Positions 1 through 15,882 of a stretch of 15,882 nucleotides of DNA are shown here, piece by piece. The DNA is from an uncultured Gammaproteobacteria bacterium (lineage in GTDB: Bacteria > Patescibacteriota > Microgenomatia > Daviesbacterales > UBA10151). The DNA lies in contig CAZFVS010000006.1 of NCBI GenBank assembly GCA_964522265.1, forward strand, positions 3,933 to 19,814, given 5' to 3'. Position numbers and translations under genes: made by a program. Within the stretch, counting starts at the first letter, position 1; every line of letters begins with the position of its first letter. A model generated the notes under the pieces. That model searched no databases. It was not told the DNA's origin and saw only the letters and a program-made list of their open reading frames with translations.

Positions 1-240
1 ATCCAGACCATTATCCAAAACAATAGTTATACTTCCGCGAAGACAGAAGATTACCTGTTTTGTTTTTTTGTGAGCATGTCTACCCCTAACTGCATTTTTT
101 ATCACGTCAAAGATGTAATAAACCCGTTTGATAGCAAAAGGGATGTGATTATTCTCCTCCATAAAGCACAAGTAACCCTCATCCAGAATTTTGGGAAGTT
201 CAATGATATAAGACAGCTTGGTTTTTCTAATATTATTCAT
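1..240 (-). CDS. Sugar 3,4-ketoisomerase of the FdtA/QdtA/WxcM-like cupin family; N-terminal 80 codons only, gene continues past the left window edge
   Basis: Manual translation of the minus strand from ATG at 240-238 gives MNNIRKTKLSYIIELPKILDEGYLCFMEENNHIPFAIKRVYYIFDVIKNAVRGRHAHKKTKQVIFCLRGSITIVLDNGLD with no stop down to nt 1. The blocks IPFxIKRVYYIFD and RGxHAHKKxxQVxxCLxGSxxxxLDxG are the signature I recall for FdtA-type dTDP-4-keto-6-deoxyglucose 3,4-isomerases. The start overlaps the upstream GT4 stop (233-235) by 8 nt. It is not in the ORF track because it is open at the edge. Confidence 0.8.
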   Translation of the reverse strand, partial: MNNIRKTKLSYIIELPKILDEGYLCFMEENNHIPFAIKRVYYIFDVIKNAVRGRHAHKKTKQVIFCLRGSITIVLDNGLD

Positions 241-1342
241 ATCTTTTTTCCTTATTTAAAACATATTCTAAAAAATCTTCAAACTGTTCTGCTACTTTTT
301 CCCAGCTAAATTCTTTTGCAAATTCTCTCGCACTTTTTCTCATTTTCCTATTTAGATTCGGCTTCGTACCCTCTAATAATTTTCCAGCATAATCATCAAG
401 ATCAAATCGTTTTGCCTTAAGCGCAACTGTCTTTTTAATCCATCTACTCTCAGGAAGATCAAATGCCACTACCGGCAGTCCCGCTGCTAAAGCTTCTAGT
501 GTCCAAAGCGAAATTTCATCATGCCTTGAAGGAAAAACTACAAATACAGACTCCTCAATCAACCTAATCTTTTTTTCACCATACGCCGGACCTAATATTT
601 TGACTTTTCCATCAAGTTTTAAATCTGATATTAACTTTTTAATTTTTTCCTTGTCTGGACCGTGCCCGGCAATTACCAAAGGAAAACCAATCTTGTTTGA
701 AACTTTTGCATAAGACTTAAGCAGTAAATCAATCCCTTTTTGCCAGATATCAAATCTGCTTAAAAATAAAATATATCGTGGTTTTTTATGTATTACCTTA
801 AAAAAGCTTTTATCAACTCCTTGTGGAACAATCCTATAAATAATATTTGGATTTAACTTTTTTGCTTTTGAGCTGTCTGTTTCAGAATAAGGAAGCAGAT
901 ATTTATAAAATCTAATACCAAATTTTTCTATCAGATCAAAAGGTATGTGGTATTTTTTGGCAAACTCAATAGCATTAAACATTGCAGGAAGCCCAACCAC
1001 TGGAATTTTAGTAAACAGCGGGGAAAAGCTGACAGATGTTGGGGCATGGAAATTTTCGATTATTATGTCTGCCTTTATACCTCTTACAAGCATTGGAATT
1101 GACAGAATAAAAAACAGGTTAGTCAAAAGTGGATTTTTATTTACAATCCCCGCATGTCTATAATAAACCCCATCCTCTTGGTAATTTTTAAACCCCGGAT
1201 ATTTGGAACAATAAACTGTAACTTGATGTTTTTTAGCCAACCTTTTACCTACCTCTCTTGTGGCATGTGCAGCTCCTGCTCCCCAAAAAGGATTTTTAAG
1301 GCTGTCCATATCAATAATTGCTATATTCATTTTTGCATTCAT
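233..1342 (-). CDS. GT-B fold glycosyltransferase, family GT4 (Glycos_transf_1 type)
   Basis: 369-aa ORF. The N-terminal MNIAIIDMDSL...GAGAAHATREVGKRLAKKHQVTVY resembles a GT4 N-domain. The C-terminal FPSRHDEISLWTLEALAAGLPVVAF is the GT4 nucleotide-sugar binding block, followed by an FSWEK tail. An alternative start is ATG 1330. Only 1 nt separates it from the upstream acetyltransferase stop. Confidence 0.85.
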   Translation of the reverse strand: MNAKMNIAIIDMDSLKNPFWGAGAAHATREVGKRLAKKHQVTVYCSKYPGFKNYQEDGVYYRHAGIVNKNPLLTNLFFILSIPMLVRGIKADIIIENFHAPTSVSFSPLFTKIPVVGLPAMFNAIEFAKKYHIPFDLIEKFGIRFYKYLLPYSETDSSKAKKLNPNIIYRIVPQGVDKSFFKVIHKKPRYILFLSRFDIWQKGIDLLLKSYAKVSNKIGFPLVIAGHGPDKEKIKKLISDLKLDGKVKILGPAYGEKKIRLIEESVFVVFPSRHDEISLWTLEALAAGLPVVAFDLPESRWIKKTVALKAKRFDLDDYAGKLLEGTKPNLNRKMRKSAREFAKEFSWEKVAEQFEDFLEYVLNKEKRYE

Positions 1343-1343
1343 A

Positions 1344-1925
1344 TTATTTAGTCTCCCATTTTTTGGATTTGGTATTGAATTGTTTTACAATTTTCGCAGG
1401 AGCCCCGATAACCAAACAAAAAGGCGGTACATCATTTACAACAACACTGTTTGCCCCTACTACTGAATTTTTCCCAATGGTTACTCCGGAACAAATTGTT
1501 GCATTTGCCGCAATCCAAACCCCTTCCTCTATGACTACATCCTTTACATTAATATACCCCTGATCTTTAATTGGAACATTTACATTATGATACTCATGGT
1601 CATGATCCCCAATGAAACAATAAGGACCAATCATAGTGTTCTTTTTGATATGAATATTTTTGGCTGCAGCAATAATAGTTCCTGTTGCTACAAATACTCC
1701 ATCATCTATTCTAAGGTTTGGAATTTTATATCCGTGCTCATTAAACTCCTCAAGAAATTTTAATGTTACATTCTTTTCCAGGTGAACCTTATTTCCCAAA
1801 TAAATGTGATTACCATTCAGAATGGTTACATCCTTACCAAATAAAACCCTTGCCCCTAAACAATAGAGGTTGCTAAATAACAGATGATAAAGATAGCGAA
1901 AAGCAAAAGTCCCTTTAGATATCAT
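1344..1925 (-). CDS. Left-handed beta-helix (hexapeptide repeat) O-/N-acetyltransferase, LacA/NodL/WcaF-like
   Basis: 193-aa ORF with serial hexapeptide-type repeats (IEEGVWIAANATICSGVTIGKNSVVGANSVVVNDVPPFCLVIGAPAKIV). This is typical of sugar acetyltransferases. Its ATG (1925-1923) lies inside the last codons of the upstream kinase-like gene, an 11-nt overlap. Confidence 0.85.
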   Translation of the reverse strand: MISKGTFAFRYLYHLLFSNLYCLGARVLFGKDVTILNGNHIYLGNKVHLEKNVTLKFLEEFNEHGYKIPNLRIDDGVFVATGTIIAAAKNIHIKKNTMIGPYCFIGDHDHEYHNVNVPIKDQGYINVKDVVIEEGVWIAANATICSGVTIGKNSVVGANSVVVNDVPPFCLVIGAPAKIVKQFNTKSKKWETK

Positions 1926-2889
1926 ATCTTAATCCTTTATTTAAATAAGTTTTTGTATATTCTGATTCTAAAAATACCCAATATTTTTTCCATACATTGA
2001 AATTGGGATCTGCAAATTGAATGGCTATATAAGATTTCAAAAAACTATTTACAGACGTTTTTAATTTCTTTTCTATATTTCTGGATAAATTCAAGTACGC
2101 AGGATCCAGACTTAAAAGAGCCAAATCATAACCTGGTAAAGTGAGAACCATCCTACCTATATCAACCAGGTATATTTTTGAATCCTTTATTATGACGTTA
2201 TGAGGCTTAAGATCCCGATGGGCTAGGCATAAACCATCATTTATATTTTGTGAAAGCAACATCCTGAGTGTTGCCAAAAATGCTTTAATAACTATTCCAT
2301 AATTTCGATTACTTCTAAGAATTGTTAAGAAACTTAAATATGGCAATGAAACTAAATAGAACACAATATTTCGTTTAGGAAAAAGTTTAACCTCATCTTT
2401 TGTCAGTAAGCTGGATGTTTGGTTTAACTCATTGATAATATGGACAAAGGTTTTGGTCTGATAATTTAATGAAAATTTACTTAATGTTTTTCCTTCAATG
2501 AATTCGTAAACAATTGATATCGACTTAGTAGAGGTAATTATCTCAATTGGCTTAGGTGTTGTAATTTTATTTTTTGCTATATTTAGTGTTTTATATAATA
2601 AATTACTTATAAACCACTCATTCAAAATAAAGTAACTTTTATAATCTTTTATTCCTGCCTCAAAAGTTTTTATAAAATAACTTCTCTGGTTTTTTATATA
2701 ACATCCCATCATTGAATCTACGTAATTATTTTCCTTTTTAATTGCTTTAAGCAACTTGTACTTACCAATTCGCTTAAATTGCCGTATTTTTTCTTTGTCT
2801 CTATTTAACCCTAACGCATGGATAAATGAACCTATTATTAGGTTTATGAAAGATGGTTTTTGAATAATAGAATTTGACAATTTTTTCAT
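1915..2889 (-). CDS. Minimal protein-kinase-like (PKL) fold phosphotransferase; LPS-kinase/APH-like, substrate unknown
   Basis: 324-aa ORF. The catalytic-loop motif HRDLKPHN sits at aa 224-231 (nt 2197-2220, verified by back-translation). It is followed by YLVDIG, a DFG-like metal-binding Asp at aa 243-245. A candidate beta3 Lys lies in SYFIKTF and a hinge-like segment in IVYEFIEG. There is no obvious Gly-rich loop or APE motif. The gene is extremely AT-rich. Confidence 0.6.
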   Translation of the reverse strand: MKKLSNSIIQKPSFINLIIGSFIHALGLNRDKEKIRQFKRIGKYKLLKAIKKENNYVDSMMGCYIKNQRSYFIKTFEAGIKDYKSYFILNEWFISNLLYKTLNIAKNKITTPKPIEIITSTKSISIVYEFIEGKTLSKFSLNYQTKTFVHIINELNQTSSLLTKDEVKLFPKRNIVFYLVSLPYLSFLTILRSNRNYGIVIKAFLATLRMLLSQNINDGLCLAHRDLKPHNVIIKDSKIYLVDIGRMVLTLPGYDLALLSLDPAYLNLSRNIEKKLKTSVNSFLKSYIAIQFADPNFNVWKKYWVFLESEYTKTYLNKGLRYDI

Positions 2890-2898
2890 ATATTTATA

Positions 2899-5800
2899 TT
2901 AAAATTCCAATATTTTCATAAGTTTACCGCTGCTTTTCTCCCAGCTAAATTGCTTGACCCATTGCTTTGAATATTCTTCCAAGGAAATTCTAAATTCTTC
3001 ATCCTTTAACACTTTACAAATTGCTTCTATCCATTTTTCCTGGTTATCCCAAGTCACCAGTAAACCCGTATGGGGATTTAGAACCGAATCCCTAAGCCCT
3101 GGTACATCAGAAGCAATGACGGTAGTCCCTGCCGCATAAGCCTCAATAATAGTGATACCCCACCCTTCAATTTTTGACGGCTGAACTAAAGCCCACGATT
3201 TGGCGAAAAGTTCAATCTTTGATTTTTCAGATACACTACCTGTAAATTTAACAATCTTACTAAGTCTTAATTTTTTAACCAATCTTTTAAGCGGAACCTT
3301 GCTTTCACCTGCACCTGCAATAGTTAAAGTAATCTCCGGGATTTCCTTTTTGATTTTTTTCATAATTAATATCAGCTTATCTATTGATTTATACGGTTTT
3401 AATCTTCCAAGATATAGCAGTGAAGGTTTCGTGCTTTTCTTAAATTTTGTCTGGAATTTTTCTAAATCCACTCCAGGACTCACTATTGATATTTCGGACT
3501 GTTTACCCATACCTAATTCTGTTATTGCTTGTCTTGAAGATTCTGATACTGTTATGATTTTTTCTTTTTTGTAAATTAGAGGCATAACCTCACCTTCCAA
3601 AAACTTTCCAATTTGAGCTAAAGGAAATTTTAGATCTGTTAAAAATACTTCCTGATGAACATGATGAATTAATAGAAACTTTTTCTCTTTTGCATACAAT
3701 GGTGTAAAAAATGGTACTCCGTTTTCCGAATCTATAATGACATCGAATTTCCCTCTAAATTTAAACATGTAATACAGAAACGCCCACAGATAAACCATGT
3801 AAAATCCACCTCTGCGATAAATCTGGATTCCATCAATGACCTCATTTTTCATACTCTTGCCATCATTACCTGAAAATATTGCAACATAAGAACCTTCTTG
3901 AATCCACCTTTTTGCAAGTTCATGAATATAAACCTCTGCTCCTCCTGCCCACTTATGTTTTATATCTCTCCAATTAAATATAAGTATCCTTAATTTTCTA
4001 TTCGCCTCTAGGGTAGGACTTTCTATCCTGCCAAATAATGCCAATATATCGGAGAGATTATTTTCAAAAATCCTTAAATATTTAACCAGTGAATGCAGAC
4101 TTAATGTCACAATAAGATGAATTGTCAGGATTGACGAGGTAACCAAAGCAATTGCACCTGCGTCCCGATGGTATATCTGTATTAATCCAATCTGGATTAA
4201 AACTAAAAGAGAAGTAAAAACAGTAAATGAATAAACTCTTTTAACCAGATAATAATCTACGAAAACTTTTGAAATTGAATAACAAGCCATTCCAAAAGTA
4301 AAAAAGAGTAGGTTCGGAACAATAGCAGAAGCCTTTGCCCCATAAAGCATTGGAATTGTTATTCCTCCCAAAACTCCAAAGGTAAAAAAACCACCAAGAG
4401 AAAGCAGAACTGTAGCAAGAAGGAGTATTTTAAGGATTCTATCAGAATTTCTCTTAGCTCCTTCCTCTCTGCTTACTAAAGGAATCATAAAGGGAGAGGT
4501 CAATGCTCCTAAAAAGAAGACCATCTTACCAACCAATGACAAAAGAGCATATTTTCCTGCTTCGGCTTGAGGTAAAAAGTGATTAGCCAAGAGGATGTCA
4601 ACTGTCAGGAATGCTACTGAAGAAAATGCTGTTAATAAAGATGCTGCAAAAAACTTTTTAGGAAACTTCTGAATTTCTGAACCGGGCGCATCATGCTCTT
4701 TCTCTTTGATTTGTCTAACAAGTATTAACCATCCTGCAAGAAAAGCTACTATAATAGAAAGAGGTATAGCCGAAAATGCCCAACGCCCCAGACCTATCCA
4801 TACCAAAGAAGCTGCTGTCAACATCTTAACAGCAGGTTCCAATACATCTATAAAAGCCAGGGTGCCAAACATTAGGTGCGAAGACAAAAAGCCACTATTT
4901 GCTCCATTAATAAATCCAACCAATAAAATTGCTCCAAAAAATATAAATAGAAACGGATTATCGACATTGAAATATTTCATTAAAAATGGAGTAGAAAATA
5001 ACCAAACAGTGGTTATCAAAACGGAAAAAATAAATGCTTTCTTTTGTAAATACTGCCAAAAACTAAAACCAGCATTTTCCCCGTACTTCCCAATCAAAAA
5101 CCCACTCCTGAAATTTGCAGTTGTTGTAAAAGCATTCAAAAGAACAGAACTAAAGGAGACAAATGCCCCAAGAAGTCCAATCAATGCAAAATCCTTAAAA
5201 TCTAATACCCGGCCTAAGAATGCATTAAAAATAAAGTTTAAAATATTGGCAACCATAGAAGCCACCACAATTGCCATTCCTCCTATGTAAGTTTTTTTAC
5301 CTGCAATAATTCCGATTAATTTATGGCGTAGGTTATATGGAAAAGCGATAGATTGTTGCTCTTGCTTTTTGTCCAAATGGAATCCATGTACTGTTTTTTC
5401 CCAATAGTGGGGTTTGAAGATAAGCTGGTAGATGGCTAGAACTGCAGCGAAGGATGCCATCAGCCAGTAAAGGGGGATTAAATAGATATATTTTATTAGG
5501 CTGTACTGGCCTTTTTTTGCACAACCTATCATATAGTTGTAAACGTACATAAAATTCCCAAATACTAAGGAAAAAATAGCCATATAAAAAACCGGGGCGG
5601 GGTAGAATGATTCAATAGTCGGCCCGACAATTGCATAGAGGGTAAAATATGAAATAGTCAGCGCCCAAAGAATCGGATTTATCAGTAAAAAGGAGATCCT
5701 TGCTCCTATAATCAACTGGAAAATAAGCGCATGGTGTTTATGGCTTACTAAAAATTTCAGGTCATCCCGAGAATGCACAAGATAGGTTTGCAGGTAACCC

Positions 5801-7512
5801 TTAATCCATCTTGAACGCTGTCTTAACCAATTTTTAAGATTACTGTTTGCTTCCTCTAAGGTTGTTGATTCAATAATTGCTGTTTTGTATCCCTTTTTGA
5901 AAAGTCTTACCCCCAGGTCACAATCCTCGGTAACGTTAAACGGATCCCAACCCTCAAGTTCCCGCAGCGCAGATATCTTAAAGTGATTACTGGTTCCCCC
6001 TAAAGGTATAGTTGTATTAATAGCCTGGAAACCTGTTAACATCACATCAAACCAAAGTGAGTACTCTGCCGTAAAAAGGCGGGTTAAAAGATTTTGGTGA
6101 GGGTTAAAGTAGTTGAGTTTTGCCTGTAAACAAACTGTTTTTTGGTCCAGTTTGCTAAAAGCCAGGTAAGCTTTTTTCAGCTGATCGCTATCGGGGATAT
6201 CCTCAGCATCATAAATTACGATCAAATCTCCTCGAGCTTTAGCCAAACCATAGTTACAGGCTTTTGGTTTGGTTTTAGGTTGGGACAGCGGTACGATTGT
6301 AGTTTTTATAAAATCAGGCAGCGTTAAACCTTTTACTTTATTTATTGTCTCGAGATCGTCTTCCTCCAGAAGCAGCTGGACATCCAGCTTATTTTTAGGC
6401 CAATCCAATTTTGAAATAGCTTTTATAAAGTTCGGGACAACTGCCGCTTCCTTATACAAAGGACAAAGTATTGAGTAAATAGGTAATGTGTTTTGATCAA
6501 TGTTGTCCAATTCCTCCTTGGTAAAATTCAATTCAGGACAGGAGTGAAGACTTTTAGTAATTAAAAATAAGGAGAAGAGTGCGTCAATAAAATAAATGAG
6601 GCTCAAGGCTCCTATAATGATTTGCAGAGTTAGCAACCAATTTAAAAAAAGTCCTGATGCTATATAAAACAAAAGCAGAGCTGCGGCAAGTTTTTGATAT
6701 AGATGAAAAGTTTTAAAGGCTGAAAGGTTATGGTTTAGTGTTGTATGGGTTACAAAACGACTGCCTTTATGGGCAATTCCGGACCCCAGCATACTTTCAT
6801 TTGATTCAGGTTTGATTTTATAAACTTTTTTACTTGAAAATTTGGTTTTTAAAGCCCTCGCTCCTATTTCTAATGAAGTTTTAACAATACTAATACTTGA
6901 ATTTCCGTATTCCCTTTTATCAAACTTGATATCAAAAGACCCAATTGTATAACCCAATTCCCTGGCTGTTAAAAGAAGCGGTAAATCAATTGTCCATGCC
7001 GACAGCTTGTTCTCGTCAAGGGCTTCGATAACTTCTCTTTTAAAAAGTTTAAGTCCTGACTGGACATCACATTTCAAACCGAAAAGAAATTTTCCGAATA
7101 TATTCCTGAACGCTGAATTTAACAACTTCCTAATAGGTTTATCGTTATAGTCAACCCTGTTGGCAACAACCACACCATGTTCGGAGAGCATTCTGAACAT
7201 TTCCGGAATAGCTTCAGGCGGGTATTGAAGATCCCCATCTATCATGGCGAAGTACTCACCTTCAACCGCTTTTACCCCTTCGATTATCGAATATGCTTTC
7301 CCGGGCTTGCCTTGTTTGTAAATAAGTTTAACCGAATAAAATTTCTGAAGACTGAATATAAAATCCGCTGTTTTATCCTCAGACCGATCATCTACAAAAA
7401 TAATTGTGTAGTTTATGCCGGATGAGGACATGGCAGAAGCAATCCTTTTTACCAAAGGCACTATATTGCCTTCCTCATTTTTAACTGGAATAATAATATT
7501 TAAATAATCCAT
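2899..7512 (-). CDS. 1537-aa multidomain membrane glycan-assembly protein: polyprenyl-phosphate-type GT2 + processive GT2 synthase + Wzx/MOP flippase-like domain + GT4
   Basis: Uninterrupted 4614-nt ORF.
- Module 1, aa 4-225: NIIIPVKNEE, FVDDRSEDKT, IDGDLQYPPE (Dpm1/GtrB/ArnC-like GT2).
- Two hydrophobic spans at aa ~272-318.
- Module 2, aa ~343-580: DAED (nt 6199-6210), TED (5923-5931), QRSRW (5806-5820), then ~4 hydrophobic spans to aa ~698.
- Module 3, aa ~741-1143: ~12 hydrophobic spans with Wzx-like N-terminal (ANILNFIFNAFLGRVLDFKDFALIGL) and mid (LLANHFLPQAEAGKYALLSL) blocks.
- Module 4, aa ~1174-1537: GT4 with EGWGITIIEAYAAGTTVIASDVPGLRDSV and an FSWEK tail. Confidence 0.9.
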   Translation of the reverse strand: MDYLNIIIPVKNEEGNIVPLVKRIASAMSSSGINYTIIFVDDRSEDKTADFIFSLQKFYSVKLIYKQGKPGKAYSIIEGVKAVEGEYFAMIDGDLQYPPEAIPEMFRMLSEHGVVVANRVDYNDKPIRKLLNSAFRNIFGKFLFGLKCDVQSGLKLFKREVIEALDENKLSAWTIDLPLLLTARELGYTIGSFDIKFDKREYGNSSISIVKTSLEIGARALKTKFSSKKVYKIKPESNESMLGSGIAHKGSRFVTHTTLNHNLSAFKTFHLYQKLAAALLLFYIASGLFLNWLLTLQIIIGALSLIYFIDALFSLFLITKSLHSCPELNFTKEELDNIDQNTLPIYSILCPLYKEAAVVPNFIKAISKLDWPKNKLDVQLLLEEDDLETINKVKGLTLPDFIKTTIVPLSQPKTKPKACNYGLAKARGDLIVIYDAEDIPDSDQLKKAYLAFSKLDQKTVCLQAKLNYFNPHQNLLTRLFTAEYSLWFDVMLTGFQAINTTIPLGGTSNHFKISALRELEGWDPFNVTEDCDLGVRLFKKGYKTAIIESTTLEEANSNLKNWLRQRSRWIKGYLQTYLVHSRDDLKFLVSHKHHALIFQLIIGARISFLLINPILWALTISYFTLYAIVGPTIESFYPAPVFYMAIFSLVFGNFMYVYNYMIGCAKKGQYSLIKYIYLIPLYWLMASFAAVLAIYQLIFKPHYWEKTVHGFHLDKKQEQQSIAFPYNLRHKLIGIIAGKKTYIGGMAIVVASMVANILNFIFNAFLGRVLDFKDFALIGLLGAFVSFSSVLLNAFTTTANFRSGFLIGKYGENAGFSFWQYLQKKAFIFSVLITTVWLFSTPFLMKYFNVDNPFLFIFFGAILLVGFINGANSGFLSSHLMFGTLAFIDVLEPAVKMLTAASLVWIGLGRWAFSAIPLSIIVAFLAGWLILVRQIKEKEHDAPGSEIQKFPKKFFAASLLTAFSSVAFLTVDILLANHFLPQAEAGKYALLSLVGKMVFFLGALTSPFMIPLVSREEGAKRNSDRILKILLLATVLLSLGGFFTFGVLGGITIPMLYGAKASAIVPNLLFFTFGMACYSISKVFVDYYLVKRVYSFTVFTSLLVLIQIGLIQIYHRDAGAIALVTSSILTIHLIVTLSLHSLVKYLRIFENNLSDILALFGRIESPTLEANRKLRILIFNWRDIKHKWAGGAEVYIHELAKRWIQEGSYVAIFSGNDGKSMKNEVIDGIQIYRRGGFYMVYLWAFLYYMFKFRGKFDVIIDSENGVPFFTPLYAKEKKFLLIHHVHQEVFLTDLKFPLAQIGKFLEGEVMPLIYKKEKIITVSESSRQAITELGMGKQSEISIVSPGVDLEKFQTKFKKSTKPSLLYLGRLKPYKSIDKLILIMKKIKKEIPEITLTIAGAGESKVPLKRLVKKLRLSKIVKFTGSVSEKSKIELFAKSWALVQPSKIEGWGITIIEAYAAGTTVIASDVPGLRDSVLNPHTGLLVTWDNQEKWIEAICKVLKDEEFRISLEEYSKQWVKQFSWEKSSGKLMKILEF

Positions 7513-7707
7513 AACCTATATTAAAAAGGCTCTATCTCATCAAAAAATTAGGTTTTGGGCAGAGGCCTTATTTACAAAGGCCTATAATAACATATGTGGA
7601 TTGAAAAGTCCAACCTATAGATATTTTATCTTCGCAGGACCAAACAACCGATGCTTAAAAATGCTTTTAATTGTTAACCCATTTTAAACCAATAGTCAAG
7701 TTTTATC

Positions 7708-7736
7708 TTGTATTATAGGGTTTACTGATATACAAT
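7708..7736 (+). promoter_or_regulatory. Candidate sigma70-type promoter for the PIG-L gene (TTGTAT-N17-TACAAT), -10 ending 6 nt before the ATG
   Basis: TTGTAT at 7708-7713, a 17-nt spacer, TACAAT at 7731-7736, ATG at 7743. No Shine-Dalgarno motif lies in between. AT-rich context, so chance matches are likely. Confidence 0.3.
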
Positions 7737-7742
7737 ATTAAG

Positions 7743-8459
7743 ATGTATTCCCAATTGAAAGACAAAGTTATACTTTGTGTTTGCGCCCACCCGGATGACT
7801 TGGAATTTGGCTGTGCCGGTACAATAGCTAAATGGGTCAGCCAGGGTGCAACAGCTTACTATGTGATTTTGACAGACGGGAGTAAAGGCTTGGAGGATAC
7901 AGGCATGCCCAGTAAGCAGCTTGCTAAAATCAGGAGGGCAGAGCAGAGGGGAGCAGCTAAGGTGTTGGGAGTCAAAAAGGTGTATTTCCAAAATTTTGTC
8001 GATGGGGAACTTATGAACAACCTCGAAGTTCGGAAAGGATTGGTTAAAATTATCAGGGAGCTGCAGCCTGATATAGTTATAACTTTAGACCCAACCTTCA
8101 TTTATGACGAGAATCATGGGATTATTAATCACCCGGATCATCGCACAGCCGGGCTGGCTACCATGGAGGCGATTTTCCCTTTTGCAAGAAACTCCAGAAC
8201 CTTCCCTGAGCTTTTAGACCAGGGATACAACTGCCACAACGTTAAGGAGGTTTTGCTGGTAAATTTTACTAAATGCAATTTTTTTATTGATATCTCGGAG
8301 ACATTAGACAAAAAAATCCTGGCGCTAAGCGCCCATCAGAGCCAACATGATGATCCTGAAAAAATCAGCAGCATGGTTAAAAGAATAGCCAAAGGGTACG
8401 GCAGAAAAGCAAGTCTTGAATATGCCGAGGGGTTTGTCAGGGTTAGTATCAACCATTAA
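7743..8459 (+). CDS. PIG-L/LmbE family zinc-dependent N-acetylglucosaminyl deacetylase (BshB/MshB-like)
   Basis: 238-aa ORF with the family motifs VCAHPDDLEFGCAGT near the N-terminus and INHPDHRTAG mid-protein. The length is typical of LmbE-like proteins. Confidence 0.88.
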   Translation: MYSQLKDKVILCVCAHPDDLEFGCAGTIAKWVSQGATAYYVILTDGSKGLEDTGMPSKQLAKIRRAEQRGAAKVLGVKKVYFQNFVDGELMNNLEVRKGLVKIIRELQPDIVITLDPTFIYDENHGIINHPDHRTAGLATMEAIFPFARNSRTFPELLDQGYNCHNVKEVLLVNFTKCNFFIDISETLDKKILALSAHQSQHDDPEKISSMVKRIAKGYGRKASLEYAEGFVRVSINH

Positions 8460-8460
8460 G

Positions 8461-11400
8461 TCAATACTCATCCCAGGATTTAATCTGTAAATCAGCAACG
8501 GTTTTTTCAGATAACGCGTAGGAAAGCGTGTTTGCTGCCTGCAAGTTAGTTACCAGGGGTATGCCAAAATCTACACATGACCTTCTGATGATAAACCCGT
8601 CTTTGTTGCCACCGCTACGATCCCTCGTACTGATATTAATCACCAAATCCACTTTCTTAGCCTTTAAAAGGTACAGGACTGACGGGTCCTTCTGTTCTGA
8701 TATTTTAAATACCTTGGCATTATTAATACCTGCGGCTTTTAAAAACAGCGAGGTTTTCTCTGTTGCGAAAATTTTCAGGCCCAGTTTTGCAAACCTGCCG
8801 GCTCCTTCCAAAAATTCCGACTTATTTTGATCCCCGCCTATTGACATAAAAATTCCTGCTTTGGGAAATTTCCAACCCGTTGCCAGAAGGGCTTTAAGAT
8901 ACGCCTCGTAAAGATCAGTGCCAAAACAAGCCACCTCTCCTGTTGATGACATCTCAACCCGCAGTCTCGGATCTGCTTCTTTAATCCGGTTAAAAGAAAA
9001 TTGCGGTGCTTTTACTCCGACATAATCCAAATCAAGAGTTTTATAATCGCCGCCTACAGATTCATCTAACATGGCTTTTGCAGCTATCGAGATAAAATTA
9101 TATCCGGTAACTTTAGAGACAAAAGGAAAGGAGCGTGACGAACGCAGGTTTAATTCTATAACCATGACCTTGTTATCCTTTGCTAAAAACTGGATATTAA
9201 AAGGGCCGGTAATATTTAACGCTTTCAGGATTTTTTTTGTATTTTCTTTAATCTGGCGTACGGTCTCAAGGTAAAGCCGTTGTGGTGGCAACACCATCGT
9301 AGCATCGCCGCTGTGAACACCCGCATTTTCAACATGCTCGCTGATGGCATAAATTATCAACCCGCCGTTTTGGGCCACGCCGTCAATTTCGATCTCTTTG
9401 GCGTTATCAATAAATTTACTGATGACAACCGGAAAATCCGGAGACAGTTTGGTTGCCTGCTTAAGATAGGTTATTGTTTCTTTATCGCTGATTGCGATAT
9501 TCATAGCGCTTCCGCTTAGAACATAAGAGGGCCTTATCAAAATAGGGTAACCGATTTTGCCTGCAAACTTTAGAGATTCTCTAACAGATGAGAGTTTTTG
9601 CCAAACAGGCTGTGCTATTTCAAGCCGGTCTAGGAGATTGCTGAATTTTTGTCTGTTCTCTGCCTGATCAATGCTGCGCGGGGAAGTGCCTAAAATTTCC
9701 GCTCCGGCTTCAGATAAACCTTGTGCCAGATTATTCGGTATTTGCCCTCCAAATGCAAGTGCCACCCGGGAGGGATTAACATCCAAAATATCCAATACCC
9801 TCTCCAAAGTCAACTCTTCAAAGTAAAGATTGTCTGCACTGTCAAAATCCGTTGAAACTGTCTCGGGATTACAGTTAATTACCGTAGTCTCGAACCCTTT
9901 TTTTCGGAATTCCTGTGCAGCCGTAACGCAGCACCAGTCGAATTCAACGGAAGAACCTATCCGGTAAGGACCGGAACCAAGAACAATAATTTTTTTATCC
10001 TTCTTAGCAGCCATTTGATTTGCAATGTCTTCTGATTGCTCCACATGGTATGACAAATAAAGATAATTTGTTTTTGCAGGATATTCCGCAGCCAGAGTGT
10101 CGATATGTTTGACTTTCGCAGTTATCCCCATTTTTTTTCTGGTCTCTCTTAGTTTGGTTTCCGTTGTATTAAAACCTTTAGCTAAAAGCCTGTCTGAAAA
10201 ACCTAATTTTTTCGCTTCCAGAATTGTTTGAAAATCCAGCGTCAACCTTTTTTGTAAGAGATTGCCTTCAAATTGAACAACTTTTTTTATTTGTTCTAAA
10301 AACCACGGATCAATACCTGTTGCTTTGTATATTTTTTCAACTGCCGCACCTTGAGCCAGTTCAGCTGATACTGCAAAAAGCCTTTTAGCACTTGGCGAGA
10401 GAAAATCCTCCAGTGTCCGCAGTCTTTTGTCACGAGCAGTGTTTAACAAACCATCCTGATCCGGTTCAATCATCCGAACTGCTTTCTGAAGTCCTTCCGG
10501 AAAACTACGGCCGATTGCCATAACCTCACCAACGCTTTTCATCTCGGATCCGATACGAAGTGATGCACCGGCAAACTTTTGCAAATCCCATTTCGGAATT
10601 TTAACGACAATGTAATCCAGGGCAGGTTCAAAAAAAGCAGAAGTTGATTTGGTAACGCTATTTTTCAATTTAGGAAGGGTATAGCCTAAACCTAACTTGC
10701 AGGCGATATAAGCCAAGGGGTACCCGGTTGCTTTTGATGCCAAGGCCGAAGACCTGGACAACCTGGCATTAACTTCTATAACTCTGTAATCATGGCTTTT
10801 GGGGTCGAGCGCGAATTGAATATTGCATTCTCCCACAATTTTCAAATGCTCAATAACCCGAAAGGAAAGTTCTCTCAAAAAATGATATTGGAAATTGGTC
10901 AGGGTTTGTGACGGTGCAACCACGATACTCTCACCTGTGTGAATTCCCAACGGATCCATATTCTCCATATTACAAACTGATATTTTATTGCCGTTTTTAT
11001 CCCTGACAATTTCATATTCTAGCTCTTTCCAGTGATGTAAATATTCTTCAATGGCAACCTGCGGTGAATATTGAAACGCAATTTCACAGGATTGAGTCAG
11101 TGCTTCTTGGTTTTGTACAACTGAGGAACCAAGTCCTCCCAACGAATAAGCTGAGCGGATAATCACAGGAAAACCGATTTTTTGTGCCACTTTTACCGCC
11201 TGGCTGACTGATGAGGCAAAACCGCCCCTGGGAACTTGTACACCTATTTTTTTTAGTTCATTGGAAAATAATTGCCTGTCTTCCGTAATCTTGATACTGC
11301 TAATTTGCGTACCTAAAATTGAAACCTTATTTTTTTTTATTAAACCTGAATCAGACAGAGCAAGACCGCAATTTAAAGCAGTTTGACCGCCAAAGCTTAA

Positions 11401-11643
11401 TGATACTGCGTCAGGTTTTTCTTTTTGAATAATTTTTTCTACGAAATAAGGAGTTACCGGCAGGAAATAAATTTTTTGCGCAAGGTCAGCGGATGTTTGA
11501 ACAGTAGCTATATTGGGATTTACCAGAATGGCTTTGATTCCTTCTTCTTTAAAAGCTTTAAGTGCTTGTGAACCGGAATAGTCAAACTCTCCCGCTTCAC
11601 CGATTTTCAGAGCACCTGAACCTAGCAATAAAATTTTTTTCAT
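8461..11643 (-). CDS. carB: Carbamoyl-phosphate synthase large subunit
   Basis: 1060-aa ORF. The N-terminus KKILLLGSGALKIGEAGEFDYSGSQALKAFKEEGIKAILVNPNIATVQTS is repeated in the second ATP-grasp half as IIVLGSGPYRIGSSVEFDWCCV...VINCNPETVSTD. The length and a C-terminal MGS-like domain fit CarB. It lies immediately downstream of carA. Confidence 0.97.
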   Translation of the reverse strand: MKKILLLGSGALKIGEAGEFDYSGSQALKAFKEEGIKAILVNPNIATVQTSADLAQKIYFLPVTPYFVEKIIQKEKPDAVSLSFGGQTALNCGLALSDSGLIKKNKVSILGTQISSIKITEDRQLFSNELKKIGVQVPRGGFASSVSQAVKVAQKIGFPVIIRSAYSLGGLGSSVVQNQEALTQSCEIAFQYSPQVAIEEYLHHWKELEYEIVRDKNGNKISVCNMENMDPLGIHTGESIVVAPSQTLTNFQYHFLRELSFRVIEHLKIVGECNIQFALDPKSHDYRVIEVNARLSRSSALASKATGYPLAYIACKLGLGYTLPKLKNSVTKSTSAFFEPALDYIVVKIPKWDLQKFAGASLRIGSEMKSVGEVMAIGRSFPEGLQKAVRMIEPDQDGLLNTARDKRLRTLEDFLSPSAKRLFAVSAELAQGAAVEKIYKATGIDPWFLEQIKKVVQFEGNLLQKRLTLDFQTILEAKKLGFSDRLLAKGFNTTETKLRETRKKMGITAKVKHIDTLAAEYPAKTNYLYLSYHVEQSEDIANQMAAKKDKKIIVLGSGPYRIGSSVEFDWCCVTAAQEFRKKGFETTVINCNPETVSTDFDSADNLYFEELTLERVLDILDVNPSRVALAFGGQIPNNLAQGLSEAGAEILGTSPRSIDQAENRQKFSNLLDRLEIAQPVWQKLSSVRESLKFAGKIGYPILIRPSYVLSGSAMNIAISDKETITYLKQATKLSPDFPVVISKFIDNAKEIEIDGVAQNGGLIIYAISEHVENAGVHSGDATMVLPPQRLYLETVRQIKENTKKILKALNITGPFNIQFLAKDNKVMVIELNLRSSRSFPFVSKVTGYNFISIAAKAMLDESVGGDYKTLDLDYVGVKAPQFSFNRIKEADPRLRVEMSSTGEVACFGTDLYEAYLKALLATGWKFPKAGIFMSIGGDQNKSEFLEGAGRFAKLGLKIFATEKTSLFLKAAGINNAKVFKISEQKDPSVLYLLKAKKVDLVINISTRDRSGGNKDGFIIRRSCVDFGIPLVTNLQAANTLSYALSEKTVADLQIKSWDEY

Positions 11644-11655
11644 ATTTTTCGAGAA

Positions 11656-12714
11656 CTACAATATATTTAGGAATTCATCAAACAAGTACTCGGCATCCTT
11701 TGGCCCGGGTGAGGCCTCAGGATGAAACTGGACAGCCATAAAAGGCTTTTTCTTGTGCCTGATACCTTCATTTGACCCGTCATTTAAGTTGACAAACCAT
11801 TCCATCCAACCGGAGGGTAATGTTTTGGGGTTAACAGCAAAACCATGGTTTTGGGAGGTAATAATGCATTTTTTGGTTAATACATCCTGCACCGGTTGAT
11901 TCTGACCCCTGTGGCCGAATTTTAATTTATAGGTATCTCCTCCTGCTGCCAGAGCCAGCAGCTGGCTGCCAAGACAAATTCCCAATATAGGGACATCTTG
12001 ATTCATCAAATTTTTAATAGTTAGTATTGTTTCCTTTGCATTTTTCGGATCTCCCGGTCCATTGGATACCAAAACCCCATCGAAAGTTAAACCTTGAGAG
12101 ATGGGGTCAAAATTCCAAGGAACAACCGTCAAACGTACTTTCTTTTCAACCAAAGACCTGATTATATTTTGCTTGGCTCCACAATCTATCAGAACAATGT
12201 GTTTTTTGCCTGCACCATAAGTTTGTAGTTTTTCAATTGAAACAAAGGGGAGAACATTGTGAATGTTGGGATCATAGATACTCTGGTTATCGGTTTTCAG
12301 TTTGTCTGTAACTGACAACTGAATTTTTCCCAACATAGTGCCCTGAGATCTTAGTTTGGTTGTTAAAGCTCTAGTATCTATCCCTTGCAGGGCAGGAATA
12401 TCCTCAGATTTAAGCCAAGCACCCAAAGTTTGCTGACTCTCAAAGTGGGAGGGAAAATCAACGTAATTTTGGACAACAAGACCCCTTACCTGGATCTTCT
12501 TGGACTCAAAATATTTAGTGTTAGGTACACCATAGTTACCAATAATAGGGTAGGTTAAAACCAGGATCTGCCCAAAATATGAGGGATCAGTCAGACTCTC
12601 GGGGTATCCCACCATACCGGTATTAAAAACAACCTCCCCTGAGCTTGAAACATCAGCCCCAAAAGATTCGCCTATAAAGGTAGTGCCATCAGATAGAATT
12701 AATCTCCCCTGCAA
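11656..12714 (-). CDS. carA: Carbamoyl-phosphate synthase small (glutaminase) subunit
   Basis: 352-aa ORF. The N-terminus (M)QGRLILSDGTTFIGESFGA aligns with the CarA N-terminus. The GATase block is PILGICLGSQLLALAAGG with VQFHPEASPGP. The start is TTG at 12714-12712. An in-frame TAG lies 5 codons upstream and the next Met falls inside conserved sequence, so TTG is the only plausible start. Confidence 0.95.
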   Translation of the reverse strand: MQGRLILSDGTTFIGESFGADVSSSGEVVFNTGMVGYPESLTDPSYFGQILVLTYPIIGNYGVPNTKYFESKKIQVRGLVVQNYVDFPSHFESQQTLGAWLKSEDIPALQGIDTRALTTKLRSQGTMLGKIQLSVTDKLKTDNQSIYDPNIHNVLPFVSIEKLQTYGAGKKHIVLIDCGAKQNIIRSLVEKKVRLTVVPWNFDPISQGLTFDGVLVSNGPGDPKNAKETILTIKNLMNQDVPILGICLGSQLLALAAGGDTYKLKFGHRGQNQPVQDVLTKKCIITSQNHGFAVNPKTLPSGWMEWFVNLNDGSNEGIRHKKKPFMAVQFHPEASPGPKDAEYLFDEFLNIL

Positions 12715-12723
12715 GCTTTTATC

Positions 12724-12753
12724 AGTCTAAAGAAAATTGATATCCTATGTCAA
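12724..12753 (-). promoter_or_regulatory. Candidate carAB promoter: TTGACA-N18-TAGACT, 9 nt upstream of the TTG start
   Basis: On the minus strand, a perfect TTGACA lies at 12753-12748, followed by an 18-nt spacer and TAGACT at 12729-12724. GATAAAAGC then precedes TTG at 12714. No SD motif is present. Confidence 0.35.
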
Positions 12754-12818
12754 TTGCTCAAAAATATCCTGAAATAGGATGACACCTGAAAGGTGGTAAG
12801 CTAAATTAGGTAAAATTA

Positions 12819-12848
12819 GGGCGGCCCGGCTGAAAAGCCGGACCGCCC
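12819..12848 (-). terminator. Rho-independent terminator for the small minus-strand ORF
   Basis: The minus-strand RNA reads GGGCGGUCCGGC-UUUUCA-GCCGGGCCGCCC. That is a 12-bp GC-rich stem whose only non-Watson-Crick pair is U-G, followed by UAAUUUUACCUAAUUU. On the plus-strand transcript the same position is a C-A mismatch and no U-tract follows, which favours minus-strand function. The hairpin starts 6 nt after the TAG of the small ORF. Confidence 0.6.
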
Positions 12849-12854
12849 ATTGCA

Positions 12855-13031
12855 CTACAAGATGTTGAGCCTCTTTAGGAAAGAAGCAGCTACAAGGACT
12901 GCCCCTATGAGGTGAAACAATGTTCCAATATTCCCAAAAAGCCTTGCTTTCCTTGGAGTGAAAAATGCTCTGAATAAAAACGCCCAGCCCAACACAAAGA
13001 ATCCAAGACCCATGAAAAACAACAGTTCCAA
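12855..13031 (-). CDS. Small hypothetical membrane protein (about 52-58 aa, two predicted TM helices); not in the supplied ORF track
   Basis: Manual minus-strand translation gives (TTG)ELLFFMGLGFFVLGWAFLFRAFFTPRKARLFGNIGTLFHLIGAVLVAASFLKRLNIL, with TAG at 12857-12855. GGGAGG at 13041-13036 lies 4 nt before TTG 13031. Alternative starts are TTG 13022 and ATG 13013. Two hydrophobic helices are joined by a basic loop (RAFFTPRKAR). The ORF is flanked by a good promoter and a strong terminator. I recognise no family. Confidence 0.45.
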   Translation of the reverse strand: MELLFFMGLGFFVLGWAFLFRAFFTPRKARLFGNIGTLFHLIGAVLVAASFLKRLNIL

Positions 13032-13095
13032 GATTCCTCCCTATTCTTGTGAATGTGCTTGCCTCACTTCGCGGGCGAAGCAGGCAACTTTGCGT

Positions 13096-13124
13096 AATAT
13101 ACTAGCTAATCTGACACAAGTCAA
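13096..13124 (-). promoter_or_regulatory. Candidate promoter of the small ORF: TTGACT-N17-TATATT
   Basis: On the minus strand, TTGACT lies at 13124-13119, followed by a 17-nt spacer and TATATT at 13101-13096. This predicts a leader of roughly 55-60 nt. The leader would contain a small CTTCG-N4-CGAAG hairpin (13067-13080) and the GGGAGG SD. Confidence 0.4.
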
Positions 13125-13140
13125 CCTTATAGTGTATAAT
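13111..13140 (+). promoter_or_regulatory. Candidate murA promoter: CTGACA-N18-TATAAT, -10 ending 6 nt before the ATG
   Basis: CTGACA at 13111-13116 and a consensus TATAAT at 13135-13140, then TCACTA and ATG at 13147. No SD is possible in the 6-nt gap. It overlaps back-to-back with the small-ORF promoter. Confidence 0.4.
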
Positions 13141-13146
13141 TCACTA

Positions 13147-14406
13147 ATGGCGAAATATATTATCAAAGGCGGAAAACCGTTAAAAGGCGTTATCAATATA
13201 TCCGGCAACAAAAATGCAGTTTTCCCCTGTGTGGCGGCTGCGCTACTCACCAAAAAACAGGTTATGCTCAAAAATATTCCCAAAATCGATGATGTCGTAA
13301 CAACAATGCAGATCCTAAACAAAATTGGAGCAGATACAAAACTTGAAGGAAATAGTCTCTATATTAATGCTGCCCATATTAAAACCTATATTCTTCCTAC
13401 GGATCTTATGAGAAAGCTGAGAGGATCGATTGTAATAGTCGGCGCCCTTTTGAGCAGAACGGGAAAAGCCCAATTTTCATTCCCGGGAGGAGATATTGTA
13501 GGTAAAAGAAGCATCGAAACTCACCTGGAGGGGTTTAAGAATCTTGGATTTAAAGTTATAAAAAATGATTTAAATTTTATAGTGTTGCCGGGTGGCTTGA
13601 AAAAAGAGATTATTTTCCTTGAAGAAGCATCCGTAACTGCAACCGAAAATTTAATCTTAGCTTCGGTTTTAAGAAGCGGGAAAGTGGTTTTAAAAAATTG
13701 CGCCACTGAACCACATATTGCTGATCTTTGCAGTATGCTCATCAAAATGGGTGCAAAAGTCAAGGGTACAGGAACACAAACACTGATTATAAACGGTGTA
13801 AAAACCCTCAGGGGAGTTGAGTTCACATTAGGTCCTGATTATTTGGAAATGGGAACTTACGCTGTGGCTGCTGCCATAACAAGAGGGAAAATCGGACTGA
13901 AAAATTGCAGCATCAAAGATCTTGAACCCGTGGTTTATCCTCTTAAAAAAATGGGGATTGGGCTTGAAAAAAATCAGGGGATTGTTTATACATCGTCTAA
14001 AAATATTTTATCCATACCAAAACTGCATACCAATATCTGGCCGGGGTTTCCAACAGATCTGATGAGCGCTTTTATAGTTTTGGCCACCCAAGCCAAAGGT
14101 GTTTCACTCCTGCATGATTGGATGTATGAAACAAGAATGTTTTTTGTCGATAAACTAGTCAATATGGGTGCAAATATCACTATTTCTGATCCGCACCGGG
14201 TTTTAGTTTACGGCCCCAGTAAGCTTCATGGCAGGGAACTTGAAACACCGGATATCAGGGCTGGCATGGCTCTGGTTTTGGCAGCTCTGGTTGCTAAAGG
14301 CGAAAGCGTGATAAATAAGGCTGAGTTAATAGACAGGGGCTATGAGGATGTGGCAGGAAAGCTTTCTTCCCTAGGAGCAGATATAGAAAAACAGGAGTCT
14401 GTTTAA
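13147..14406 (+). CDS. murA: UDP-N-acetylglucosamine 1-carboxyvinyltransferase
   Basis: The ORF track opens at 12958, but homology begins at the in-frame ATG 13147. MAKYIIKGGKPLKGVINISGNKNAVFPCVAAALLT aligns with E. coli [35 protein letters not shown]. The result is 419 aa, typical for MurA. The preceding 63 codons are low-complexity and overlap the minus-strand small ORF and promoters. Confidence 0.93.
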   Translation: MAKYIIKGGKPLKGVINISGNKNAVFPCVAAALLTKKQVMLKNIPKIDDVVTTMQILNKIGADTKLEGNSLYINAAHIKTYILPTDLMRKLRGSIVIVGALLSRTGKAQFSFPGGDIVGKRSIETHLEGFKNLGFKVIKNDLNFIVLPGGLKKEIIFLEEASVTATENLILASVLRSGKVVLKNCATEPHIADLCSMLIKMGAKVKGTGTQTLIINGVKTLRGVEFTLGPDYLEMGTYAVAAAITRGKIGLKNCSIKDLEPVVYPLKKMGIGLEKNQGIVYTSSKNILSIPKLHTNIWPGFPTDLMSAFIVLATQAKGVSLLHDWMYETRMFFVDKLVNMGANITISDPHRVLVYGPSKLHGRELETPDIRAGMALVLAALVAKGESVINKAELIDRGYEDVAGKLSSLGADIEKQESV

Positions 14407-14434
14407 AAAGCTTTCTGTATGATAGATTATTTTT

Positions 14435-15832: not shown

Positions 15833-15882
15833 TTGTTCAGGATTTGACAAAACCTTCTAGGATTAGGCACACTTAATTAATG

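Follow-up and report, generated by a model that had tools for sequence, protein, structure and literature searches.

The gene described here lies on the minus strand of a 15,882-nucleotide stretch of DNA (hereafter the window; positions 3,933 to 19,814 of contig CAZFVS010000006.1, assembly GCA_964522265.1) and encodes, in one open reading frame (ORF) of 1537 residues, four modules of glycan assembly: a family 2 glycosyltransferase domain resembling Dpm1, GtrB and ArnC (GT2a), a second family 2 domain with membrane helices of its own (GT2b), a putative flippase domain of the multidrug/oligosaccharidyl-lipid/polysaccharide (MOP) superfamily and a family 4 glycosyltransferase (GT4). This fusion is a real membrane protein, found here in a Microgenomates (Patescibacteria) bacterium and conserved in many of these ultra-small organisms, and its gene leads a surface-glycan operon. 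Each module is a member of a known family or close to one; the fusion family itself is widespread, generically annotated and uncharacterised. The parts of the gene are as follows, from the N- to the C-terminus of the protein (aa, amino acid positions; TM, transmembrane helix; HMM, hidden Markov model; pLDDT, predicted local distance difference test).

2899..7512, minus strand: whole ORF, ATG start, 1537 aa plus stop, four modules
6838..7503, minus strand: GT2a, Dpm1/GtrB/ArnC-like domain of GT-A fold, aa 4-225 (Pfam PF00535 and PDB sequence matches)
6697..6837, minus strand: linker from GT2a to the first TM pair, aa 226-272 (low pLDDT in the model)
6559..6696, minus strand: TM1-TM2 hairpin, aa 273-318, part of the GT2b module (hydropathy; model helices 40-59 and 61-92)
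5773..6495, minus strand: GT2b catalytic domain, aa 340-580 (Pfam PF13641/PF13632, profile against PDB, Foldseek)
5416..5736, minus strand: three hydrophobic helices after GT2b, aa 593-624, 639-666 and 670-699 (model helices)
5377..5415, minus strand: invariant motif K-P-H-Y-W-E-K-T-x-H-G-(F/L)-H, aa 700-712, proposed gating loop
5284..5376, minus strand: variable basic linker between GT2b and MOP, aa 713-743 (site of gene splits in related genomes)
4084..5283, minus strand: putative MOP-superfamily (Wzx/PST-like) flippase block of 12 helices, aa 744-1143 (fold, and HMM matches in relatives)
4018..4083, minus strand: amphipathic helix before GT4, aa 1144-1165 (hydrophobic moment 0.44; helix 439-456 of the MOP model)
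2902..3987, minus strand: GT4 (GT-B fold, retaining type), aa 1176-1537 (Pfam PF13439 and PF00534)

An earlier note on this DNA, made from the sequence alone, had read the frame as a genuine, selected fusion and its 4.6-kb length as non-random, and on both points it is borne out. The computed chance of 1537 stop-free codons at 36.3% GC is about 1e-48. Among 5.8 billion proteins searched, over 120 relatives spanning the full length (1530-1600 aa) were recovered, their identity being about 50%; they stem from assemblies of NCBI, JGI, ENA and Logan. The 120 best matches were aligned to score module cover and motif conservation, and the homologue counts given below refer to this set. All four modules are covered in 112 of them, the remaining eight being devoid of GT2a only, and the catalytic motifs of the three transferase modules are invariant or nearly so throughout. 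It is because full-length homologues number more than a hundred, stem from independent assemblies and keep these motifs invariant that the fusion has to be regarded as genuine and under selection. Those relatives that bear a name are entered simply as 'glycosyltransferase' of Candidatus Levybacteria, Curtissbacteria, Gottesmanbacteria, Microgenomates or Patescibacteria. An Rfam scan of the window gave no match.

A long frame of this kind might in principle result from mis-assembly, a chimeric contig or an error that erased the stop between two or more genes. Two-gene forms split at the GT2b/MOP junction do exist in related genomes and, in one of these (L049), the two ORFs share a frame with a single TAA between them, so that one base change would interconvert both states. 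Against this stand the number and independence of the intact forms: four-module, full-length proteins account for 112 of the 120 top homologues, from independent assemblies and sources, as well as 45 ORFs of related loci. Moreover, the junction linker of the window aligns with that of the full-length homologues, the junctions are all in frame and the motifs flanking them are conserved. On these sequence comparisons the artefact appears effectively refuted, and we would give it only the slimmest chance.

The identity and order of the four modules also agree with the earlier note. Pfam profiles recognise modules 1, 2 and 4 (GT2a, GT2b and GT4), and the third is identified by its fold and by HMM matches of its relatives; the profile search that the note had proposed thus confirmed three modules, the MOP block of the window's own sequence remaining undetectable by HMM. 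The DGD, DAED, TED, QRSRW and EGWGITIIE motifs fall at the positions, or inside the module ranges, that had been given for them.

GT2a matches Pfam Glycos_transf_2 (PF00535) over aa 6-163 with an E-value of 1.4e-33. Its DGD (aa 92-94, nt 7231-7239) opens a D-x-D-L-Q-Y-P-P-E motif (aa 92-100) that is invariant in every homologue bearing the module. The closest solved relatives, by comparison with PDB sequences, are the dolichyl-phosphate mannose synthase (DPMS) of P. furiosus (5mlz, 3.6e-18), ArnC (9hwj, 1.9e-14) and GtrB (5ekp, 1.4e-12), and GT2a may accordingly be placed, with the activity that this predicts, in the polyprenyl-phosphate transferase clade. The NCBIfam ArnC score is 62 bits, against a cut-off of 529. 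GT2a shares its GT-A domain and the D-x-D-L-Q-x-P-P-E motif with Dpm1/DPMS, GtrB, ArnC, GacI and CsbB; unlike these, it is without TM helices of its own and is tethered to the TM pair of GT2b by a 47-aa linker. Among the homologues this linker measures 27-48 aa (median 47), its sequence being moderately conserved.

GT2b matches Pfam Glyco_tranf_2_3 and Glyco_trans_2_3 over aa 346-628 (E-values 3.6e-25 and 7.2e-24), and its DAED (aa 435-438), TED (aa 528-530) and QRSRW (aa 565-569) motifs are each found in 120 or 118 of the 120 homologues. The profile match to PDB sequences is BcsA (7lby, 1.6e-18). An AlphaFold model of aa 232-742 (pLDDT 78; predicted TM-score, pTM, 0.77) gave Foldseek matches to BcsA (3.2e-14), hyaluronan synthase (HAS; 5e-14), CvHAS (TM-score 0.56-0.58) and PcManGT (TMt 0.62-0.66), as well as to chitin synthases, and the fold match to these processive synthases takes in the membrane helices. 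The module includes the TM1-TM2 hairpin, which is kept in all homologues devoid of GT2a. Similarity to particular enzymes is much looser: NCBIfam PgaC_IcaA aligns to aa 313-701 with 94 bits against an equivalog cut-off of 422. GT2b does score above the cut-off of Pfam Glyco_transf_21, the ceramide glucosyltransferase family (31.9 versus 21.7 bits).

In BcsA, the glycosyltransferase domain is followed by two TM helices, an interface helix and then a gating loop in the cytosol that binds UDP through its FxVTxK motif, and the minimal cellulose-synthase core of six helices includes two further TM helices C-terminal to that loop (PMC8892547). The three helices that the model shows after GT2b probably comprise two crossings and one interface or inner-leaflet helix. 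They are followed by aa 700-712, a short stretch conserved more strongly than any other in the protein (P, W, E, K, T, H and G each in 120 of 120), which has low pLDDT and is hence flexible in the model. Its W-E-K-T-x-H-G has the pattern aromatic-x-x-T-x-basic-G, resembling FxVTxK(G), at a position equivalent to the gating loop of BcsA; by analogy in position and sequence pattern, we infer that it may be a gating loop and would then be cytosolic. Whether fused or encoded as a separate protein, GT2b ends 10-40 residues past this motif, and the linker that follows in the fusion (18-116 aa) is the least conserved segment among the homologues. In the model and in the related loci the module has only 2 + 3 helices, short of the six-helix synthase core. 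GT2b thus appears to possess four of the six core TM helices and to be without the final pair that completes the channel in true synthases. Since it is the two TM helices after the gating loop that are absent, self-export by GT2b is doubtful, and the export step is more likely carried by the flippase.

Module 2, a processive-type GT2 in the earlier note, has the D, D, TED, QRSRW signature of such enzymes and an incomplete helical core. With BcsA, class I hyaluronan synthase, chitin synthase, PgaC/IcaA and NodC it shares two TM helices ahead of a GT-A domain with D, D, TED and Q(R)xRW, then two TM helices and a third helix followed by a conserved loop motif, and these enzymes are its best profile and fold matches. 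It differs from them in having neither the two TM helices after the gating loop nor a PilZ domain or other regulator, in scoring far below equivalog cut-offs and in its constant association with a MOP flippase and a GT4.

The MOP block is the most diverged part of the protein. In the window's own sequence (aa 701-1173) it gave no Pfam or NCBIfam match even at E<=1; homologous blocks, in contrast, match Polysacc_synt in 11 of 37 cases (best 1.2e-8) and Polysacc_synt_3 in three of 37 (best 9.6e-14). The AlphaFold model (pLDDT 86.9, pTM 0.84) has 12 long helices in a two-lobe fold, and a fold search with it found MurJ, MATE and WzxE structures (E 2.8e-7 to 4e-6, TM-score 0.65-0.75). On the strength of this fold match and of the HMM matches in relatives, the block is identified as a diverged MOP domain of the Wzx/PST type, that is, a putative flippase. 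The lysine plus arginine (K+R) pattern of the loops fits an N-in/C-in arrangement, and several charged residues are conserved: D972 and K996 in 120 of 120 homologues, R768 in 118 and K896 in 110, with R otherwise. Comparison of the block's profile with PDB sequences returned orexin-receptor (GPCR) matches only, at E ~0.002, which were judged spurious. Identity with MurJ, the lipid II flippase, was rejected too, as the block has 12 helices whereas MurJ has 14, and its relatives match Polysacc_synt, not MurJ models. The 12-helix two-lobe fold, the N-in/C-in orientation and charged intrahelical residues are otherwise those of Wzx/PST, WzxE, MurJ and GacK, the last from the streptococcal group A carbohydrate pathway. 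In contrast to these proteins, the window's copy is too diverged for an HMM match and is embedded between two glycosyltransferase modules instead of standing free.

GT4 matches Pfam Glyco_transf_4 and Glycos_transf_1 over aa 1190-1518 (E-values 4.7e-13 and 2.4e-39). Its E-x7-E block, EGWGITIIE (aa 1449-1457), has both glutamates, E1449 and E1457, in 120 of 120 homologues. PDB relatives are MshA (3c4q, 1.1e-15), PimA, WbaZ and PimB', and NCBIfam Agl16 aligns to aa 1190-1533. The amphipathic helix ahead of GT4 is retained in a related fusion from which the MOP block is missing (L007).

The earlier note had counted hydrophobic spans of about 2, about 4 and about 12 and placed all transferase domains on the cytoplasmic face. 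There are in fact two helices before GT2b (aa 273-318), three after it and 12 in the MOP block; the middle count was thus one too high, and the even parity and the cytoplasmic placement nevertheless stand. Three crossings after GT2b would leave GT4 outside the cell, and for this reason an even number is argued. Several observations point the same way. Where the gene is split in two, in 14 loci, the MOP-GT4 protein has a short Lys-rich N-terminus that leads straight into helix 1. In natural variants GT2b and GT4 are separated by 0, 6 or 12 helices: a complete GT2b is joined to GT4 by about 100 hydrophilic residues and no helix in L007, and only the C-terminal six-helix half of the MOP block is left between them in L021. 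Averaged over the family, K+R residues number 2.9 ahead of the first post-GT2b helix, 0.1 and 3.0 in the first and second loops, respectively, and 10.2 in the 44 residues of aa 700-743; the segment past the third helix is thereby put inside, and the MOP loops alternate as N-in/C-in. Finally, the third helix is followed by the invariant, flexible K-P-H-Y-W-E-K-T-x-H-G. The K+R averages place positive loops on either side of this helix, and the number of crossings is even whichever two of the three helices cross. The topology would then have a cytoplasmic N-terminus, about 16 crossings (2 + 2 + 12) and GT2a, GT2b and GT4 all in the cytoplasm.

Scanning one genome per species with a MOP profile yielded 163 loci, of which 80 were kept, mostly from Microgenomates classes and some labelled WWE3 or Parcubacteria, and HMMs built from the four modules were run on all ORFs of 84 loci. 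Of 88 MOP-bearing ORFs in these loci, 45 are GT2a-GT2b-MOP-GT4, 18 are GT2b-MOP-GT4, 15 are MOP-GT4 and 10 are MOP alone. For 14 of the MOP-GT4 loci the ORF immediately upstream is GT2a-GT2b, and in three loci GT2a forms a separate upstream ORF. The split junctions are typical of coupled genes: a stop occurs 10-40 codons past the conserved motif, overlapping an ATG or a few bases ahead of it, and the next protein starts with 'MK...'. In most split loci the two ORFs are in different frames, with several ATGA overlaps; in the L049 locus (Gottesmanbacteria), the lone TAA between GT2a-GT2b and MOP-GT4, at 6073-6075, could stem from a fission of very recent date or from a sequencing error, or could allow read-through. 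Because the split forms are scattered in a clustering of the MOP sequences, fusion or fission must have occurred repeatedly.

Rearrangements of the set are found as well. L007 (Roizmanbacteria) has the GT2b-GT4 fusion at 1949-4942 and its MOP as a separate downstream gene at 5881-7350, and in L021 the half-MOP fusion (2501-5938) is adjoined by a full, free MOP. A second, free MOP paralogue directly follows the four-module gene in L008 (5911-7317), L016 (5902-7326) and L068 (9098-10522); those of L008 and L016 reach 495 and 519 bits with the family MOP HMM, nearly the score of the fused copy. A MOP-profile search of 1.84 billion cluster representatives found 980 proteins at E<=1e-30, and lengths among the top 150 of these fall into classes of ~1530-1610, 1290-1420, 720-960 and 405-520 aa.

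The core set, then, is GT2b, MOP and GT4, while GT2a is optional, being separate or absent in places. Since the MOP domain is always fused or adjacent and GT2a is missing from 18 ORFs, the flippase is tied to GT2b and GT4 and not to GT2a. The four-module architecture is common in Microgenomates and not singular, representing one among several states of fusion in which a conserved gene set of constant order occurs. Many of the genome records with the gene are titled 'uncultured Gammaproteobacteria bacterium' (L006, L012, L014-L020 and others), and others Eisenbacteria, Methylomirabilota or Bathyarchaeia. These titles look like placeholders or wrong taxonomy of metagenome-assembled genomes rather than true hosts.

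In the window, the fusion gene is accompanied by the following genes.

233..1342, minus strand: separate GT4 glycosyltransferase gene, with high-scoring separate orthologues just downstream of the fusion gene in related loci
1344..1925, minus strand: hexapeptide-repeat (WbbJ/WcaF-like) sugar O-acetyltransferase gene, with relatives in only three related loci
1915..2889, minus strand: APH/choline-kinase-like phosphotransferase gene, directly downstream of the fusion gene (Pfam APH, 3.1e-6)
7743-8459, plus strand: PIG-L/LmbE deacetylase gene, divergent and upstream of the fusion gene, with a relative in only one related locus

The APH-like gene overlaps the next gene by 11 nt and probably belongs to the same operon as the fusion gene; it has relatives in 22 related loci, immediately downstream in L001. 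In L004 an APH-like domain is fused to a polysaccharide deacetylase. On the minus strand, the 230-nt spacer upstream of the fusion gene (7513-7742) contains sigma-70-like promoter matches. In L002 (7784-8011) and L003 (7710-7946) a small HTH_17 (excisionase/MerR-like) gene stands just upstream of the fusion gene, no such ORF being present in the window's spacer. Beyond the PIG-L gene lie first carB and carA, both minus-strand genes, and after these murA and purF, which are read from the plus strand. The murA ORF (12958-14406, plus strand) matches TIGR01072 with 480 bits, above the cut-off, and aligns only from residue 64, so its GTG start as listed is probably about 63 codons too early, judging from this alignment. 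GC content is 0.28-0.39 over the glycan genes (window 1-7500; minimum 0.284 at 2001-3000) and 0.40-0.43 over carB, carA, murA and purF (8000-15882), a step typical of exchangeable surface-polysaccharide loci. A bacillithiol or mycothiol pathway, with GT4 and the divergent PIG-L as MshA/MshB or BshA/BshB, was considered and rejected: scores are far under the cut-offs, and a PIG-L gene adjoins the fusion gene in only one of 84 related loci.

Operons headed by the fusion gene in related loci contain RmlA/RmlB/RmlC-like (dTDP-sugar), aminotransferase, methyltransferase, polysaccharide deacetylase and APH-like kinase genes, together with soluble glycosyltransferases, among them several GT2s of 300 aa and a GT4. 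In 16 of 69 loci, proteins of about 500 aa with 8-10 helices are encoded 1-5 kb downstream; they form two families (alignments A3 and A4), of which L007:10245-11819 and L049:11025-12698 are members. The only known family that they resemble is PMT_2, and this below threshold, in three of seven (best 9.2e-7) and two of 11 sequences, respectively. A3 has an invariant P-D near the N-terminus, and profiles of the two families gave no match to PDB sequences. By sequence they are no more than candidate glycosyltransferases of GT-C fold.

Since the four modules are fused, and in relatives are often neighbouring genes, their steps are linked into one surface-glycan pathway. We propose that this pathway assembles a lipid-linked glycan on the cytoplasmic face of the membrane, which is then flipped by the MOP domain, a reading to which we would give an even chance. 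GT2a, like DPMS, GtrB and ArnC, would move a sugar from a nucleotide sugar to polyprenyl phosphate. GT2b is predicted to have the full catalytic apparatus of a cellulose or hyaluronan synthase (D, D, TED, QRSRW and the gating-loop-like WEKTxHG). The absence of the two channel-closing helices suggests that it might use this apparatus in a groove open to the bilayer, extending a membrane-anchored (lipid-linked) acceptor without extruding a free polymer. GT4 would attach a further sugar, probably alpha-linked, and the MOP block would flip the lipid-linked product to the outer face, where it may be used by other proteins encoded in the operon, with the PMT_2-like GT-C candidates as possible users in some relatives.

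Several observations weigh against this proposal. Since QRSRW and TED typify processive exporters, GT2b may have a translocating role. With a mean H of 0.75 and a moment of 0.06, the third post-GT2b helix is strongly hydrophobic without being amphipathic, in which it differs from the interface helix of BcsA, and the HMMER alignment of GT2b to BcsA ends before the conserved motif, so that the gating-loop assignment is not alignment-based. NCBIfam scores lie far under every equivalog cut-off, and the sugar is consequently not assignable. Furthermore, the window contains no GT-C candidate, priming phosphoglycosyltransferase or polymerase, and GT-C-like genes occur in only about a quarter of the related loci, with Pfam hits below threshold. 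Of the Wzx/Wzy set (priming phosphoglycosyltransferase, Wzy and chain-length regulator) none is present in the window, and no Bac_transf or Glycos_transf_4 was found in the four annotated loci L001-L004. As to the three-component Gtr-type set, a GtrB-like synthase and a flippase are joined here in one polypeptide, and the third component could correspond to the sub-threshold PMT_2 candidates of 16 of the 69 loci, none of them in the window.

Alternatively, GT2b may itself polymerise and translocate a beta-glycan, with the MOP helices possibly replacing its missing channel helices, while GT2a and MOP serve a decorating branch of the Gtr/Gac type (cf. GacI/GacK and GtrB/GtrA): GT2a would make the polyprenyl-phosphate sugar, MOP would flip it, a GT-C would decorate the glycan outside and GT4 would prime or cap it. 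This comes nearest to the make, decorate and export assembly line of the earlier note, a reading that would probably have to be revised as regards GT2b. It is possible, if rather unlikely in our view. It accounts for the full processive signature and for BcsA, HAS and chitin synthases being the best structural matches, as well as for the resemblance of GT2a to DPMS, ArnC and GtrB and for the PMT_2-like multi-helix proteins of related operons; the MOP block also stands exactly where TM7-8 of BcsA would follow. On the other hand, the MOP domain is kept, fused or adjacent, in loci without GT2a, and its role is therefore not tied to that module; GT2b alone has four of the six core TM helices; and the linker between GT2b and MOP, besides being the least conserved segment with its 18-116 aa, is broken in 14 loci, the MOP block being left out of the L007 fusion altogether, which makes it unlikely that the MOP helices are integral to the GT2b channel. 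A further reading is a hybrid export route, in which GT2b would hand a growing lipid-anchored chain directly to the tethered MOP domain, or the MOP helices would form the missing wall of the channel. We regard it as improbable; were it true, a single polypeptide would couple polymerisation by one machinery to translocation by another, unrelated one, in a manner distinct from the canonical Wzx/Wzy, ABC-transporter and synthase pathways. A different substrate is conceivable too: GT4 and GT2b might add sugar to a glycerolipid of the membrane, either diacylglycerol or a phospholipid and perhaps taken from a host, and MOP might bring the resulting glycolipid to the outer leaflet, there to form part of the membrane or to anchor a lipoteichoic-acid-like polymer. 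The Glyco_transf_21 score of GT2b, the lipid-acting PimA and PimB' among the relatives of GT4, the amphipathic helix ahead of GT4 and the reduced lipid biosynthesis of Patescibacteria would all fit. Nonetheless, GT2a falls in the polyprenyl-phosphate transferase clade, known MOP flippases work on polyprenyl-linked glycans, and the operons, with their dTDP-deoxysugar pathways and many more glycosyltransferases, are typical of polysaccharide loci, so that such a glycolipid route seems distinctly unlikely.

The activities predicted for the fusion have counterparts elsewhere. Archaea and eukaryotes have pathways for lipid-linked oligosaccharides in which AglJ/Dpm1/Alg5, Alg2/Alg11/Agl16, Rft1/AglR and luminal GT-C enzymes act as separate proteins. 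By analogy only, the set of activities would be the same here (a Dpm1-like GT2, a GT4, a MOP-type flippase and, in some relatives, PMT_2-like GT-C candidates nearby); it differs in being fused, and neither an oligosaccharyltransferase nor a priming enzyme was seen. The earlier note knew of no characterised protein with this architecture, and this holds: a literature search for the four-module family or architecture found no description of it, and relatives are annotated only as 'glycosyltransferase'. The only related concept found was that of MprF, and of PplT with GT-A or GT-B domains, in which an enzyme making a modified lipid is fused to a translocating domain (bioRxiv 10.1101/2022.03.11.483950). 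The principle of fusing a lipid-modifying enzyme to a flippase is shared with these proteins. However, the fold of PplT is unrelated to MOP, and those fusions act on phospholipids and have one catalytic domain, against three here.

The GT2b module is a cellulose-synthase-like GT2 that is without the terminal channel helices and never occurs apart from a flippase, and could serve to test how enzymes of the synthase type use lipid-linked acceptors and what determines self-export. The natural variants with 0, 6 or 12 helices between GT2b and GT4 amount to a built-in topology experiment. To our knowledge, the envelopes of this large uncultivated bacterial group are essentially unstudied. The fusion is a natural 'Rosetta stone', placing a predicted polyprenyl-phosphate sugar synthase, a synthase-like GT2, a putative MOP flippase and a GT4 in one pathway. 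With one gene for most of a glycan pathway, it also appears attractive for heterologous reconstitution.

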